Shown one piece after another: positions 1 to 41,213 of a DNA stretch of 42,225 nucleotides. Origin of the DNA: a virus (taxonomy: Duplodnaviria; Caudoviricetes); IMG/VR virus record IMGVR_UViG_3300046495_000035, positions 1 through 42,225 of that record; one strand, given 5' to 3'. Position 1 is the first letter of the stretch. Each line of letters begins with the position of its first letter. The notes beneath the pieces were generated by a model, which did not search any database, was not told the origin of the DNA, and worked only from the letters and a program-made list of their open reading frames with translations. The position numbers and the translations under genes were made by a program.

Positions 1-1224
1 ATAGGAGGAGAGTTTGCTTTAACCAAACTCTCCTCCGAATGGGAAGGCTGGGGTACCGCTCTTAAACCAGCTTTTGAACCCATCACCATTGCTCGTAAGC
101 CAATCTCTGAAAAGACTGTGGCAGAGAACTGCTTGAAATGGGGCGTTGGGGGGATAGATATCGACGGGAGTAGGGTGGAAGCTGATAATAATTATCTTAA
201 CGGAGATTTCAATCCTGAAAAAAAGATGAATAGGGATGTGTATAACTGGTCTAATGGGGTTAAAGATGTGAGAAGACCGCCTAACAAACAAGGCCGCTTC
301 CCCGCCAATCTCATTCACGACGGCTCTGATGAGGTGGTGAGTTTGTTTCCGAATAGTAAGAGCGGAGCGAGAAGCTCGAAACACGTCATCGGGAACGAAC
401 AGGGGGAAATGTTCAACCATGGAATCTACGGCAAGTACAAGTCGAAACCATTTGATGATGTTCCAGCTACCGAAGGTTCCGCCTCTCGCTTCTTCTATTG
501 TGCTAAAGCCCCGAAAGACCAACGATTCAGCTACTTGACTTGTAACTGTCAAACAGTCAAACTTGATTCATGGCAAAAACAGGACCAAAACCAAAAAGAC
601 CAGACGGAAACCACATTACCAGAAGTGGATACCTACGAGGAAAGCATGGAGGACGACTCCGACTTGAACATGACCTCATATGGGAACGAGCAAACGGACC
701 AATCCCCAAGGGACACGACATCCACCATATTGACGGGAACAAGCTCAACAACCAACTCTCCAACCTCCAGCTCGTTACCCCCACAGAACACAAACGAATC
801 CATGGTGGATGTGAATTGCGAGGCAGTGAGTGGTGGAAGCCTTGCTCAATCTGTAAACAACTCAAACCAATCAATACCGAATACTGGTACATCTCAAGAG
901 AAGGGTGGCCTTTGTACGGGCGTTGTCGTGTCTGCCACATTGGCCGAGTCGTACAGGAAAAGCGTCTGCGTAGATTGCAGAAGCGAAGTGAAAATTAGCG
1001 GACATCCGACCCAAAAACCCCTCGCCCTCATGGAGTACCTCGTGAAGCTCGTTAGCCGAAAGGGAGCTGTTGTCCTAGACCCGTTCGCTGGTTCAGGCTC
1101 TACGCTCATCGCCTGTAAGAAGACAGGCAGGAACTACATCGGGTGCGAGATGAACGAGGAGTATGTAAAGATTGCGGAGGCACGGTTGAAGGCAGTTTCT
1201 CCAGACCAAATCCAACTTCTATGA
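1..1224 (+). CDS. DNA methyltransferase (N6/N4 family), 5'-truncated by window edge, with ~150-aa in-frame insert
   Basis: Frame 1 is open from base 1 (…WEGWGTALKPAFEPITIARKP…). Also GRFPANLIHDGS, SRFFYCAKA, HPTQKPLALMEYL, the SAM motif VLDPFAGSGST and YIGCEMNEEY. Confidence 0.93.
   Translation: MGGEFALTKLSSEWEGWGTALKPAFEPITIARKPISEKTVAENCLKWGVGGIDIDGSRVEADNNYLNGDFNPEKKMNRDVYNWSNGVKDVRRPPNKQGRFPANLIHDGSDEVVSLFPNSKSGARSSKHVIGNEQGEMFNHGIYGKYKSKPFDDVPATEGSASRFFYCAKAPKDQRFSYLTCNCQTVKLDSWQKQDQNQKDQTETTLPEVDTYEESMEDDSDLNMTSYGNEQTDQSPRDTTSTILTGTSSTTNSPTSSSLPPQNTNESMVDVNCEAVSGGSLAQSVNNSNQSIPNTGTSQEKGGLCTGVVVSATLAESYRKSVCVDCRSEVKISGHPTQKPLALMEYLVKLVSRKGAVVLDPFAGSGSTLIACKKTGRNYIGCEMNEEYVKIAEARLKAVSPDQIQLL
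535..563 (+). promoter_or_regulatory. Candidate internal sigma70-like promoter for the nested HNH gene (leaderless transcript)
   Basis: TTGACT (535-540), 17 nt, CAAACT (558-563), 6 nt, ATG (570). It overlaps an inverted repeat TTGAC..GTCAA. Confidence 0.4.
570..998 (+). CDS. HNH homing endonuclease (HNH_3-like) with C-terminal Zn finger, nested in an alternate frame inside the MTase gene
   Basis: EHDLIWERANGPIPKGHDIHHIDGNKLNNQLSNLQLVTPTEHKRIH, then CSIC…CRVC. Confidence 0.9.
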   Translation: MAKTGPKPKRPDGNHITRSGYLRGKHGGRLRLEHDLIWERANGPIPKGHDIHHIDGNKLNNQLSNLQLVTPTEHKRIHGGCELRGSEWWKPCSICKQLKPINTEYWYISREGWPLYGRCRVCHIGRVVQEKRLRRLQKRSEN

Positions 1225-2777
1225 CCGACCCCCGCCTCCTCGATAAATCCTGGCGACTCTCCCATCTCTACACCATTACTTCCAAGGCAGGAGGTGAGAA
1301 GGTTTCCTTCAAGCCAAACTTAGCTCAGCAGGAATTGTTCAAGGTTCTGGAGACAGATAGGCGAGTGATTATTTTGAAAGCTCGTCAGCTTGGAGTCACC
1401 ACCGCCCTCTGCGTTTGGTTCCTGGATGAGGTTCTCTTTCGCAGGAACATCAACTCCCTCTCTGTTCTTCAAAGTAGGGACCACGCCATTTCAGCTTTCG
1501 ATGGGAAGGTCCACTTCGCTTGGGATAACATCCACCCAGATTTGAAGAAAGGTTTGGGCTGGACCGTGGATATTTCTAGGGCTAATCAGCTTACCTTCTC
1601 CTTCGGTGATGGCTCTTCCTCTTCCTACGTTGTTTCTACCTCCGGGCGTTCCGGGACTTTTCAAAACGTTCATATCTCCGAGTTGGCTGCTTTGGATTCC
1701 GAACGTCCCAACGATTCAAAGGAAGTGATTACTGGAACAATCCCCGCCGTCCCTACCTCCGGGCTTATCGTGATTGAGAGTACGGCCAACGGGGAATTGG
1801 GAAACTTCGCGAATTACTGGAGGGATGCGGTCTCAGGAAGAAACGGGTATAAGCACCTCTTCTTCAACTGGAGAATGGACAAGGAGGAAATCGAGAAGAT
1901 GTCTCCCGTGGAATTGCCTCCTGAGTTCAAGGACATCCAGATTCTCCACAAACTCTCTGACAAAGAAGCCTCCTATCTTTTTTCTAAATGGCGTTCCCTC
2001 TCCTGCGACTGGTCCCTTCTTCGTCAGGAGTATCCAACCACTCCAGAGGAAGCCTTCACTTCTTCGAATGAAAAGTTCTTCGACATCGAAGCCCTGGATG
2101 AAGCGATTGAAATTGCGGAAGTCGGAACCAAGTTTGGTTCGCATACCTACTTCCAGGAACCGAAGCCTGGACGAACCTACTCCATTGGAGCCGACCCTTC
2201 CGAAGGAGTAGGTGGGGACCACTCCGCCGCAACAGTTCTCGAACTCGACGGATTGAAACCGAAGGTTGTTGCCATCTACGCTGACAATAAATGCCCACCA
2301 GAAGATTTCGCCTTTACCCTGAAAAACCTTTCTGAGAAATACAACGGAGCGACCATCGCTGTCGAAAGGAATAATCACGGCCATGCCGTCATCGCTACTT
2401 TGAAACACATCTACGATGAGGACCTTCTGTATCGGCAGCAGGACCCATCCATGGTTTCCTCCAAATCCTTCCGCCTGGGATTCAATACCAATGCAGCAAC
2501 CAAACCCCTCATCCTCCACGCTCTCGGACAGGTGGTTCGAGAGAGAGCCATCCTCATCCCTTCAAGGGAACTCCTTACCGAACTTCGGCAATATCCTAGG
2601 AATGAAGCGTCGAAGACAAGGACAGAGGAAGGAGCCACAAGACATTGGGACCTCGTTCTTTCAACAGCGCTCGCCCTCCATGCTTCAGACTTCGCTCTGA
2701 AAAACGGGAAAGGTGGTACCATAGGAGGTATAACCTACGTTCCTACTAAGGAACTGGATGAGTTTTCAGCCATCTAA
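1221..2777 (+). CDS. terL: Terminase large subunit
   Basis: Walker A IILKARQLGVTT, Walker B VHISELA, coupling motif IESTANG, nuclease motifs IGADPSEG-GDHS, AVERNNHG and HWDLV. ATG 1221 overlaps the MTase stop (ATGA). Confidence 0.95.
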   Translation: MTDPRLLDKSWRLSHLYTITSKAGGEKVSFKPNLAQQELFKVLETDRRVIILKARQLGVTTALCVWFLDEVLFRRNINSLSVLQSRDHAISAFDGKVHFAWDNIHPDLKKGLGWTVDISRANQLTFSFGDGSSSSYVVSTSGRSGTFQNVHISELAALDSERPNDSKEVITGTIPAVPTSGLIVIESTANGELGNFANYWRDAVSGRNGYKHLFFNWRMDKEEIEKMSPVELPPEFKDIQILHKLSDKEASYLFSKWRSLSCDWSLLRQEYPTTPEEAFTSSNEKFFDIEALDEAIEIAEVGTKFGSHTYFQEPKPGRTYSIGADPSEGVGGDHSAATVLELDGLKPKVVAIYADNKCPPEDFAFTLKNLSEKYNGATIAVERNNHGHAVIATLKHIYDEDLLYRQQDPSMVSSKSFRLGFNTNAATKPLILHALGQVVRERAILIPSRELLTELRQYPRNEASKTRTEEGATRHWDLVLSTALALHASDFALKNGKGGTIGGITYVPTKELDEFSAI

Positions 2778-33459: not shown

Positions 33460-34440
33460 ATGCCTAAACTGAAACAAGAGAAAAAAGAAATGGAGTATGA
33501 GGACGCTCCTTCTGGTTATTGCACCTTGTATGACTACAAATCGCCATTTATGGCTTATGAGGGTGGATACGGGTTCCAAGGAGTTCTCCTCTTCGATGGG
33601 AAGACGGACAAAATCCAATGCCACCTCTGTGGGGCATGGGAAAAATCCCTCCAGCATCACCTGAAACGGGAACACGCCTTGAACGTATCGACGTACAAAG
33701 ACCGAGTGGGATTGAGCCAGACCACCGCTCTCATCTCCGAGAGTACCCGTGAGAAGCTCATCGCTCATAACATCGGTAAGCGAATCCAGAATCTCCAGAA
33801 CCGAAAAGGGAAATCTCATTCTACGGAAACTCGTGAGAAAATCCGAGAGACTCTGAAGAAGAACTCGATGGAGTTGAAGAACAAACGTGGAACCTGCCCG
33901 CTCCAACTCCTCACTCGCTTGAAGGCGGTGTATGAAAAGGTGGGAGAAGAAGACTTTACCACCGATTGCGTTCCGTTCTACGAGGCTCTCATCAAAACGT
34001 ACGGAACCTTCGCCGAAGCCTGTCGCCGTGCGGGTGTTCCATGCAAGGCTCGGAATGTCCCTCCTTCACGGATGAAGTACACCAAGGAAAGTATCGTTGA
34101 GTGGGTGCGTGAGTTCATCAACCAGAACGGAAGGGCACCAAAGGAAAAAGATTTCCTTGCTAATAACAAGAGGCGTATCTACCAGGCTATAAGCAGACGG
34201 TTTGGTATCCAAGAAATCATCAAGGAAGCCCGTGCGCTCGCTACGACGAAAATAGACGGTGACCACGCCAATCGCTACACCGACGAGGAACTCCTCCAAA
34301 ATATGAGGGACTTCGAACGGGTGAATGGTCGTGAACCGTATCCGTCCGATGCCCGCCGGGGATTCACCTCCGATGTCCAAACATTCGTCAACCATTTCGG
34401 GAGTTGGAAGAAAGCAAAGGAACTTGCCTTCACTAAATAA
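33460..34440 (+). CDS. Multi-domain DNA-binding protein (MucR-like Zn finger, NUMOD3-like, homing-endonuclease-associated repeats)
   Basis: IQCHLCG…HHLKREH…YKDRVGL; KGKSHSTETREKI; YTKESIV…NGRAP; YTDEELL…NGREP…HFGSWKKA. Confidence 0.75.
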   Translation: MPKLKQEKKEMEYEDAPSGYCTLYDYKSPFMAYEGGYGFQGVLLFDGKTDKIQCHLCGAWEKSLQHHLKREHALNVSTYKDRVGLSQTTALISESTREKLIAHNIGKRIQNLQNRKGKSHSTETREKIRETLKKNSMELKNKRGTCPLQLLTRLKAVYEKVGEEDFTTDCVPFYEALIKTYGTFAEACRRAGVPCKARNVPPSRMKYTKESIVEWVREFINQNGRAPKEKDFLANNKRRIYQAISRRFGIQEIIKEARALATTKIDGDHANRYTDEELLQNMRDFERVNGREPYPSDARRGFTSDVQTFVNHFGSWKKAKELAFTK

Positions 34441-39144: not shown

Positions 39145-39431
39145 ACATCAAAGAGAAGCTGGAGGCGATAATCAAAGCGTCGGGTTCCATGATTTTATGC
39201 GGAAAACACCCGACCGAGTGTGGCGAATGGCACGGCGTGTGTCCCGAAGCGGTAAAGGTCATCGCTATGGAGTTCGCCTGTGAGGTGCTGCGTTCGCTCG
39301 ACATTCCAGACCTTGACCACAGAAAAAATGATAGTGGGCATGAAACAATTGTCACGAATGAACGCAACCTGACGAATGGAGCCTGGAGGATTACCCGCGA
39401 CGCCTTAGTAGAACAATTGCGCTCCGTATGA
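39141..39431 (+). CDS. Hypothetical protein
   Basis: ATGA overlap with the previous gene. Confidence 0.6.
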   Translation: MNIKEKLEAIIKASGSMILCGKHPTECGEWHGVCPEAVKVIAMEFACEVLRSLDIPDLDHRKNDSGHETIVTNERNLTNGAWRITRDALVEQLRSV

Positions 39432-39445
39432 TTTCATGTTATCAT
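39417..39445 (+). promoter_or_regulatory. Candidate promoter for the HNH gene
   Basis: TTGCGC, 17 nt with TG, TATCAT, then 9 nt to ATG 39455. Confidence 0.5.
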
Positions 39446-39454
39446 AGTCGCACT

Positions 39455-39988
39455 ATGATTTCATACAATTGCTCTCAATGCGGAAAGAAACTATCTGGGT
39501 TCAAGAGTCACATCGAGAGATACAAGACACATTTCTGCTCTAGAAAATGCAGATATGAGTCACAGAAGGGGACGATGCAGACGCATGGCATGAGCCGAAC
39601 AAACTTCTACTCCGTGTGGAGAGGGATGTTCAACAGATGCGAAAACAAAAACCACAAACAATTTCCAGCTTACGGAGGTCGAGGAATAAAAATCTGTGAT
39701 AAGTGGTCGCAGTTTGAAAACTTTTACGATGACATGTTCCCAACATACAGAGTCGGTCTGTCACTCGATAGGATTGACAACAACGGCGCCTATTCAAAAA
39801 AGAATTGTCGATGGGCAACCCGTTCAATACAAAACACCAATAAAAGGAACACCGTATTCACCGTAGTAAACGGCGTGAGGGTTCCTCTGGCAAGAATCGA
39901 AAAAGCTAGGAGTGCAAAATATCAGCGTAGGTACAGGGAGGATAAGAAAAGAAATCTCATCAACAAATTACAAGGGAAGAAGGTATGA
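39455..39988 (+). CDS. HNH homing endonuclease with N-terminal Zn finger
   Basis: CSQC…FCSRKC; THGMS…WRGMFNRC…YGGRGIKIC…SLDRIDNNGAYSKKNCRWAT…QNTNKR. Confidence 0.9.
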   Translation: MISYNCSQCGKKLSGFKSHIERYKTHFCSRKCRYESQKGTMQTHGMSRTNFYSVWRGMFNRCENKNHKQFPAYGGRGIKICDKWSQFENFYDDMFPTYRVGLSLDRIDNNGAYSKKNCRWATRSIQNTNKRNTVFTVVNGVRVPLARIEKARSAKYQRRYREDKKRNLINKLQGKKV

Positions 39989-40757: not shown

Positions 40758-40865
40758 GGCGTGCTATACTGGGTTTACGTGGAATGAACCCCACGCATAA
40801 CCCATTTTTCTATCCTGCTGGACGTGGAAACACGTCGGTTCATCGGCAGGATTGAAAAGCTGGTT

Positions 40866-41213
40866 ATGAGATTTTGCATAGACTGTAAGAAGTTCAAGAA
40901 AGTAACCTACGTCAAAAAAAGAGGTAAGGAAAAGACCTCTTATCGCTGTCGTGAGTGCAACACGAAGATTTGCAAGAAGTACCGTGACGCTGGAGGTATG
41001 AAGCCGATAAGGGAACGGATAGAAAAATACGAAAAAGCCAACCCAGAAAAACGCCGAGCTTGGAACCTCGCGAAGGAAATACCTCTCATGCCCTGCGAGA
41101 CCTGCGGTACTACAAAAAAAATCCACAGGCATCACGACGATTACACAAAACCAATGCAAGTACGTTTTCTCTGTCCAGCTCACCACAAGCAAGCACACAT
41201 GAAAGAGAAGTGA
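40866..41213 (+). CDS. Zn-finger HNH-like endonuclease, paralog of 36101..36523
   Basis: CIDC…CREC; PCETCG…HHDDYTKPMQVRFLCPAHH. Confidence 0.8.
   Translation: MRFCIDCKKFKKVTYVKKRGKEKTSYRCRECNTKICKKYRDAGGMKPIRERIEKYEKANPEKRRAWNLAKEIPLMPCETCGTTKKIHRHHDDYTKPMQVRFLCPAHHKQAHMKEK

Follow-up and report, generated by a model that had tools for sequence, protein, structure and literature searches.

An HNH endonuclease gene nested out of frame in a phage DNA methyltransferase gene: a probable unspliced homing cassette of the ShiLan kind

How can a DNA methyltransferase (MTase) gene carry a complete nuclease gene inside its own coding sequence and still be read from one side to the other? The question is raised by the beginning of a 42,225-nt stretch of viral DNA (the whole stretch analysed, hereafter the window), a single contig that represents the 42 kb genome of a tailed phage, with a terminase gene at 1221 and a portal-like gene at 2781. 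The reading that we favour, with a probability of about 78%, is that the nested HNH gene is an unspliced homing cassette and that the host MTase would be translated through it as a loop. The features on which the argument is built are the following.

1..1224, + strand: beta-class N6/N4 DNA methyltransferase gene that hosts the insert, in frame 1 (PHROG 67 at 8e-40)
490..510, + strand: FFYCAKA, conserved left anchor of the variable loop, common to insert-free relatives
about 523..1017, + strand: putative mobile tract with promoter, HNH gene and cysteine pairs, through HPTQK, in place of a loop of 10-62 aa
535..563, + strand: predicted sigma-70-type promoter, TTGACT (535-540), 17 nt, CAAACT (558-563), then 6 nt to the HNH ATG
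541..549, + strand: C-N-C of the MTase frame, which co-occurs with the 3′ CxxC and would form the 5′ half of a predicted zinc staple
570..998, + strand: HNH_3 endonuclease gene, 142 aa, frame 3 (PF13392 HNH_3 at 5.5e-18)
967..978, + strand: C-V-D-C of the MTase frame, which would form the 3′ half of the staple and overlaps the HNH codons of Leu133 and Leu136
1003..1020, + strand: HPTQKP codons, likely homing target, with Gln where empty alleles have Val
1078..1101, + strand: DPFAGSGS, SAM-binding motif I, intact
1221..2777, + strand: terminase large subunit, the next gene, which marks a tailed phage

The earlier note on this DNA had described a complete HNH gene inside an MTase frame devoid of stops, and both observations hold. 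Over positions 1-1224 frame 1 is open, its product matches PF01555 (N6_N4_Mtase, 3e-26) and its relatives include DpnA, CcrM and RsrI. Because the contig begins inside the gene, the 5′ part of the MTase, including the catalytic DPPY, is missing; DPPY is present in full-length relatives and, of the beta-class order DPPY, target-recognition region, HPTxKP and motif I, the C-terminal motifs of the window are intact. Beside X1, which may be the run of origin, a second public DNA run (X2) contains positions 446-1262 on one contig with 0 differences, and thus the nested arrangement is not an assembly error. Another contig in runs X1 and X2 has a different sequence ahead of the terminase start (window position 1227), so that part of the phage population seems to be without the MTase at this place.

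The HNH open reading frame lies in the third frame, wholly within the MTase gene, and its catalytic motif is intact. In 58 aligned relatives, residues H52, H53, N65, H74 and H78, together with C92, C95, C119 and C122, are invariant. The predicted structure of the protein (pLDDT 92.5) had I-HmuI (1u3e) as its best fold match (Foldseek E 8.7e-3), with no match at E 0.001. The nested gene is likely to encode a selfish homing endonuclease. The window has further nuclease genes, an HNH gene at 39428-39988 (PHROG 374) and an endonuclease gene at 40824-41213 (PHROG 2340), as well as a weak homing-endonuclease match at 33460-34440 (PHROG 314).

Is this arrangement a singular case? A search with the insert as read in the MTase frame found 19 proteins among 605 candidates, the HNH query found 132 among 136, and insert-bearing proteins amounted to 231 representatives (50% clustering, E up to 0.001). 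In viral contigs, direct protein queries retrieved only 4 distant HNHs, whereas profile scans found at least 209 loci; these and the window together included 141 with a full-length family member, which form 109 clusters among the matches listed. Among these clusters, 84 lie nested in MTase genes (12 have intein motifs and 72 do not) and 25 are not nested, L084 being counted, on inspection, with the latter as free-standing. As 23 of the 25 non-nested clusters lie directly behind an MTase gene, 107 of the 109 clusters listed are found within or directly behind one. All these counts refer to related sequences and not to independent events. The search for loci was made with the HNH, so that an open or closed host frame played no part in their choice. 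In cultured phages, the HNH gave 7 matches, all weak, and none of them is an established carrier of the window's own element.

This family indicates that the host frame is kept open by selection. For a single gene the argument is modest: the chance of an open frame had been put at 0.001, which is 30-120 times too small. When the window HNH was recoded with the codon use of the genome, the host frame was open in 6,094 of 50,000 draws (0.12); among 143-codon windows of 26 other genes of the genome, 273 of 6,635 (0.04) were open in that frame; and shuffling the Leu, Val and Ile codons of the HNH itself left it open in 3 of 100 cases. With a chance of 3-12% for one gene, selection has to be argued from the family. 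There, the host frame is free of stops over the HNH in 83 of 84 nested clusters but in only 2 of the 25 free-standing ones, a control set mostly made up of one Planctomycete clade (both among the matches listed); stops in the MTase frame within the insert, which would have spoken against dual coding, are seen in one nested copy. In this lone exception, L097, the copy is carried by an intein and has decayed, the HNH frame itself being interrupted by stops; all 72 nested relatives listed without intein motifs have the MTase frame open across the HNH. Against synonymous codon shuffles, nested copies had 1 host-frame stop where 82 were expected and free-standing copies 74 where 83 were predicted. 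NTA codons of nested copies were found before A or G in 0 of 1,085 cases and before C or T in 67 of 915, whereas in free-standing copies the figures were 23 of 350 and 17 of 245; kinship inflates the stop and codon counts, although the within-gene NTA contrast does not depend on the free-standing control set.

Selection on the two frames over the insert is of different kinds. The median dN/dS of 21 hand-picked close pairs was 0.19 in the HNH frame and 1.17 in the host frame, and the MTase part downstream of the insert had a median of 0.21 in the 18 of these pairs where it could be estimated. This pattern, together with the stop depletion, supplies the two-frame comparison that the earlier note had proposed, and it implies that the nuclease is the selected product, that the host reads the insert as filler and that the C-terminal MTase domain is maintained. 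Could the insert-bearing MTase nevertheless be non-functional, its frame being open only to avoid polarity on the downstream terminase or because the insertion is of recent origin? The gene seems dispensable, given the second contig of X1 and X2 with different sequence before the terminase, and a host-frame dN/dS near 1 over the insert would also suit a dead protein. Nevertheless, we consider this explanation quite improbable, because the downstream part is under purifying selection in carriers, cysteine codons are kept in the host frame and motif I is intact. As for a recent origin, synonymous sites of the HNH are near saturation between carriers and therefore the family is old.

An open frame might also be a mere fallback if the insert were removed from RNA or protein by some unrecognised self-splicing element. 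Related HNHs do travel in intein-like inserts: 12 of the 84 nested copies listed sit in such inserts, exactly at the H-x-T-x-K-P motif, although the Pfam scores of the two intein-motif relatives tested are below the curated cut-offs. The window element is of another build. The absence of intein splice motifs and of a group I intron core, both already remarked upon in the earlier note, is borne out: no intein family was found in 20 of 20 aligned insert-bearing MTases, the window element has neither a Hint domain nor a terminal His-Asn followed by Cys, Ser or Thr, and no Rfam intron family matched positions 1-1400 at E values of up to 5. RNA folding of 500-1030 is ordinary (z-score +1.04) and the flanks of the HNH, around 45 nt on the left and fewer than 10 nt on the right, leave too little room for a ribozyme core. 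Moreover, RNA splicing would not need such near-total avoidance of stops. We therefore give self-splicing a very small chance, and dual coding without splicing, as first suggested from the window, fits every test run, from the 72 open frames to the lack of intein, intron and folding signals. As a separate observation, intein-like inserts with the same HNH family in frame 3 were seen in L086 (where the MTase is ParB-fused), L087, L097, L218, L237, L245 and L248-L254. More distant HNH genes, also in frame 3, lie in intein-like segments of long open reading frames (L001, L102, L119, L124, L125, L131, L132, L135, L136, L142-L145, L154, L159, L161 and L163), and the three of these frames that were tested (L102, L124 and L142) encode terminase large subunits that match inteins.

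Where does the inserted DNA begin and end, and how would the MTase accommodate it? From FFYCAKA to HPTQKP the loop of the window has 164 codons (492 nt), a length of insert that keeps the MTase frame, whereas in insert-free relatives with both anchors matched the spacing between FFYCAK and HPTxKP is 10-62 residues of highly variable sequence. In the alignment with insert-free homologs, which the earlier note had recommended for mapping the edges, the DNA of the window follows carriers inside about 523-1017 and empty alleles (L007/L010) outside, on both sides; the switch from carrier-like to empty-like sequence comes directly after HPTQK, and the edges are good to about 10 nt. For unrelated nucleases, too, this loop is a hotspot. 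Zinc-finger nucleases of a DUF559/Vsr-like type occur there in L300:581-1438 (-), L309:1573-2343 (-) and L313:720-1448 (+), where, on either strand, they split the MTase gene rather than nest in it. In L112, moreover, an MTase of the same family is host, at a different site further upstream, to a smaller HNH of 82 aa nested in the same frame (1947-2192), and the 'empty' relative L058 carries at 450-1100 another long S/T/N-rich in-frame insert in this loop, without a match to the window HNH profile.

Cysteines next to the insert suggest how its ends might be held together. Among the 72 non-intein nested carriers listed, CxC and CxxC are both present in 41, both absent in 21 and present singly in only 10; among the 115 scorable of 150 protein representatives, the corresponding figures are 74, 31 and 10. 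The 3′ cysteines arise only with NTG codons at HNH Leu133 and Leu136, and NTG is used there in 36 of 37 and 31 of 31 carriers, respectively, compared with 107 of 494 at other positions. An initial idea that the 3′ CxxC often lies beyond the HNH stop was rejected, as it is inside the open reading frame in 49 of 50 cases. Cysteine knuckles in the same loop were also seen in some empty alleles (L014, L039, L046 and L062). Co-occurrence and codon choice thus support the view that the four flanking cysteines are kept as a putative zinc-binding staple. The earlier guess of a Zn knuckle gains these two lines of evidence, while structural confirmation did not come with it: the AlphaFold model of the MTase with insert, from a 20-row alignment, had a mean pLDDT of 42.6 and is uninformative for the loop or the zinc site. 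The 21 carriers lacking both pairs would have to do without such a staple.

A nested gene needs its own means of expression, and a promoter-like motif stands before the HNH start. The predicted promoter lies in the MTase coding strand. The window copy is weak (8/12) and, with CAAACT as its -10 box, is not listed by a plain promoter scan, whereas close relatives have TAAACT at this position. With HNH starts chosen by a nearest-ATG rule, TAnnnT is found exactly 6 nt before the start in 28 of the 84 nested copies listed, compared with 0.46% of 9,916 background positions and with 0 of the 25 free-standing copies listed. The hexamers and the amino acids they encode vary among nested copies, and TTGAC is found 34-35 nt upstream of the start in 17 of 83 nested copies among the matches listed. 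Another 24 of the nested copies listed have a Shine-Dalgarno motif, and none has both motif types. The simplest reading is that the internal promoter would yield a leaderless HNH mRNA. By eye, gene starts of the window have no Shine-Dalgarno motif and show pyrimidine/A-rich leaders, which suggests a host that initiates without Shine-Dalgarno sequences.

What does the nuclease cut? The HPTVKP motif is kept in 64 of 68 empty alleles, which were fetched by their likeness to the window exteins, but in only 16 of 69 carriers (the 72 non-intein carriers minus 3 without a scored motif); it is changed in 4 and 53, respectively, and among carriers in at least 14 different ways. Because the motif is changed in carriers and kept in empty alleles, and because intein-borne members of the family insert there, we infer that HPTVKP is the homing target and that codon changes would shield carriers. 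Against shielding, the 16 carriers that keep HPTVKP are unexplained by self-protection. Moreover, HPTQK is normal in solved MTases such as DpnA and thus the Gln of the window may be inherited from the donor. In L259-L290, Planctomycetota MAGs, a free-standing HNH gene starts right at the end of the MTase gene with HLT(A/G/Q)KP; these copies possibly reflect intronless homing into the same target.

The distribution of the insert is in line with mobility. Sequence comparison shows it to be patchy among MTase alleles. The window exteins are 77% and 76% identical to the empty alleles L014 and L007, whereas the carrier with the nearest HNH, L169 (73%), has exteins only 64% identical to those of the window. 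A tree of 103 rows, 37 of them carriers with both flanks and 66 empties, requires 10 changes for the carriers, of which only 3 are forced by starred branches, gain and loss not being separable. Six related carriers, chosen after the first tree had been seen, were rejected as a clade (AU p 2.7e-5). Contigs of 4 DNA runs contained no joint over the insert, a result that is uninformative on empty alleles, and no RNA run was among those listed for this sequence.

These data also bear on whether the HNH has been domesticated, so that MTase and nested nuclease form a compact restriction-modification or phage-exclusion pair whose nesting ties their inheritance. Such a pair would account for the confinement of 107 of the 109 listed clusters to an MTase gene or its immediate neighbourhood and for purifying selection on the HNH. 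It would not lead one to expect a patchy spread with exteins closer to empty alleles, the same HNH family riding in intein-like inserts, a fold nearest to the homing enzyme I-HmuI or changes clustered at one coding motif of the host gene, and we give it only a small chance.

As an unspliced homing cassette, the element would work as follows. The MTase would be translated straight through the insert as a mostly unstructured loop, held at its base by the predicted zinc site of four cysteines; a separate leaderless transcript, likewise predicted, would serve for synthesis of the nuclease. In a co-infecting phage, the nuclease would nick or cut the HPTVKP-coding stretch of an insert-free MTase gene; repair would copy the tract from about 523 to 1017 into that allele, and the carrier would escape its own nuclease through the changed codons of the tract (Val to Gln in the window).

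A related junction, absent from the window allele, occurs in sister alleles. In 10 carriers (L178, L180, L185, L197, L201, L203, L213, L214, L215 and L258) the host frame runs through the HNH and then reads H-P-T-stop, with V-K-P resuming 5, 7 or 9 nt later, and 19 of 150 protein representatives end at HPT. Pattern scans and carriers together gave 26 distinct HPT-stop sites, 12 of them behind a window-type HNH, 9 behind a different nuclease (all 3 that were tested are DUF559/Vsr-like) and 5 behind none detected. ACN or GCN stands just before Val at 24 of the 26 sites, and 25 match the third-base class of the take-off codon; a pattern scan with the landing codon freed gave no new contig. Further loci with HPT-stop were seen in L299-L356, L379-L383 and, for ShiLan, in L357:5808-5850. 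In the cultured mycobacteriophages ShiLan and RitaG, the junction lies between small annotated genes, and 85 of 158 matching phage records cover a junction of the ShiLan/RitaG type. A ribosomal hop of tRNA-Thr would explain all HPT-stop junctions, and we give it about even odds; as a start codon lies within two codons at 13 of 28 junctions, a split gene is a serious rival, and the matched codons may be duplication scars. If the junctions are read by hopping, they would be natural short bypass sites. According to the accessible part of a 2016 review (PMC5009743), no natural in-frame stop-hops are known, and literature searches outside subscription journals, including the accessible parts of PMC9957025 and of the bypass preprint, returned no report of bypass at this motif. 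Taken as a whole, a cassette in which a promoter written in host codons, a zinc staple encoded by nuclease codons and self-protection at HPTVKP have become adapted to one another, complemented by tRNA-Thr stop-hops of 5-9 nt that would protect sister and mycobacteriophage alleles, is a tentative proposal to which we give somewhat worse than even odds. If true, the stop-hops would be a minimal equivalent of the T4 gene 60 bypass that has evolved repeatedly.

Homing endonuclease genes are known to settle in host genes in other ways. In Aeh1, mobE splits nrdA. The phage T4 MobA/gene 60 bypass cassette was reportedly treated by Bonocora et al. in 2011. In the accessible accounts of this cassette, the host gene is split and a structured gap of 50 nt is bypassed (PMC5009743; bioRxiv 10.1101/2022.08.31.505936). 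The nuclease gene lies in the host gene, and an alteration immediately downstream protects the carrier, which provides a precedent for shielding, and the HPT-stop sister alleles resemble gene 60 in having a stop and a matched codon at the motif. Unlike T4, the host frame of the window is continuous and shows a codon change instead, and the gaps of the sister alleles are of 5-9 nt and of putative function. Inteins with out-of-frame homing endonucleases, as far as their preprint was accessible (bioRxiv 10.1101/2025.01.02.630785), have the nuclease in frame 3, as the window does; their enzymes are endonuclease VII-like, whereas the window family is HNH_3, and it is the 12 of 84 nested members listed with intein motifs that share this build, the window element having no splicing domain. 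Free-standing HNH homing endonucleases that move by intronless homing (PMC2988022, in its accessible part) share with the window an I-HmuI-like HNH core and resemble the proposed cassette in co-conversion of flanks and in a cut site separate from the insertion site, but their genes do not overlap the host frame.

The closest known system is the ShiLan domain, an out-of-frame HNH hidden in mycobacteriophage DNA methylases (Arsenault, Gosselin, Gogarten 2025, PMC11855218; also, in its accessible part, Gosselin et al. 2023, PMC9957025). The 'third route' proposed in the earlier note had already been described in 2025, and in the same MTase family (PMC11855218). Both ShiLan and the window have the HNH in the third frame, a stop-free host frame, a patchy distribution and no intein or intron signs (PMC11855218), and ShiLan gp65 aligns with the window MTase through PF01555 and the GWGTALKP, GRWP and SRFF blocks. 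They differ in the insertion site, which interrupts GTALKP-SFEPI in ShiLan and lies between FFYCAK and HPTxKP in the window; in the HNH, with 195 aa in ShiLan and 142 aa in the window, 33% identity over a 75-aa core only and other flanking domains; and in the promoter-like motif, with none scored before the ShiLan GTG. A ShiLan domain in the strict sense, at the same site and homologous over its whole length, is thus not what the window holds. Judged from sequence, the element belongs to the ShiLan kind, is distinct from the ShiLan element and represents a large separate lineage. The main text and figure legends of PMC11855218 give no selection test, target site or zinc staple, and the predicted promoter, the putative cysteine staple, the HPTVKP target and the HPT-stop junctions would be new relative to that paper. 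They offer candidate answers to its open points, namely how the nuclease is expressed, how 140 foreign residues are tolerated and where the cut is made. Nested genes of this kind are missed or mis-split by annotation. The 10 phages of the 2025 paper (PMC11855218) are now joined by the 72 non-intein clusters listed here and by 231 protein representatives, so that what was a curiosity of ten phages is now a large family with demonstrable selection.
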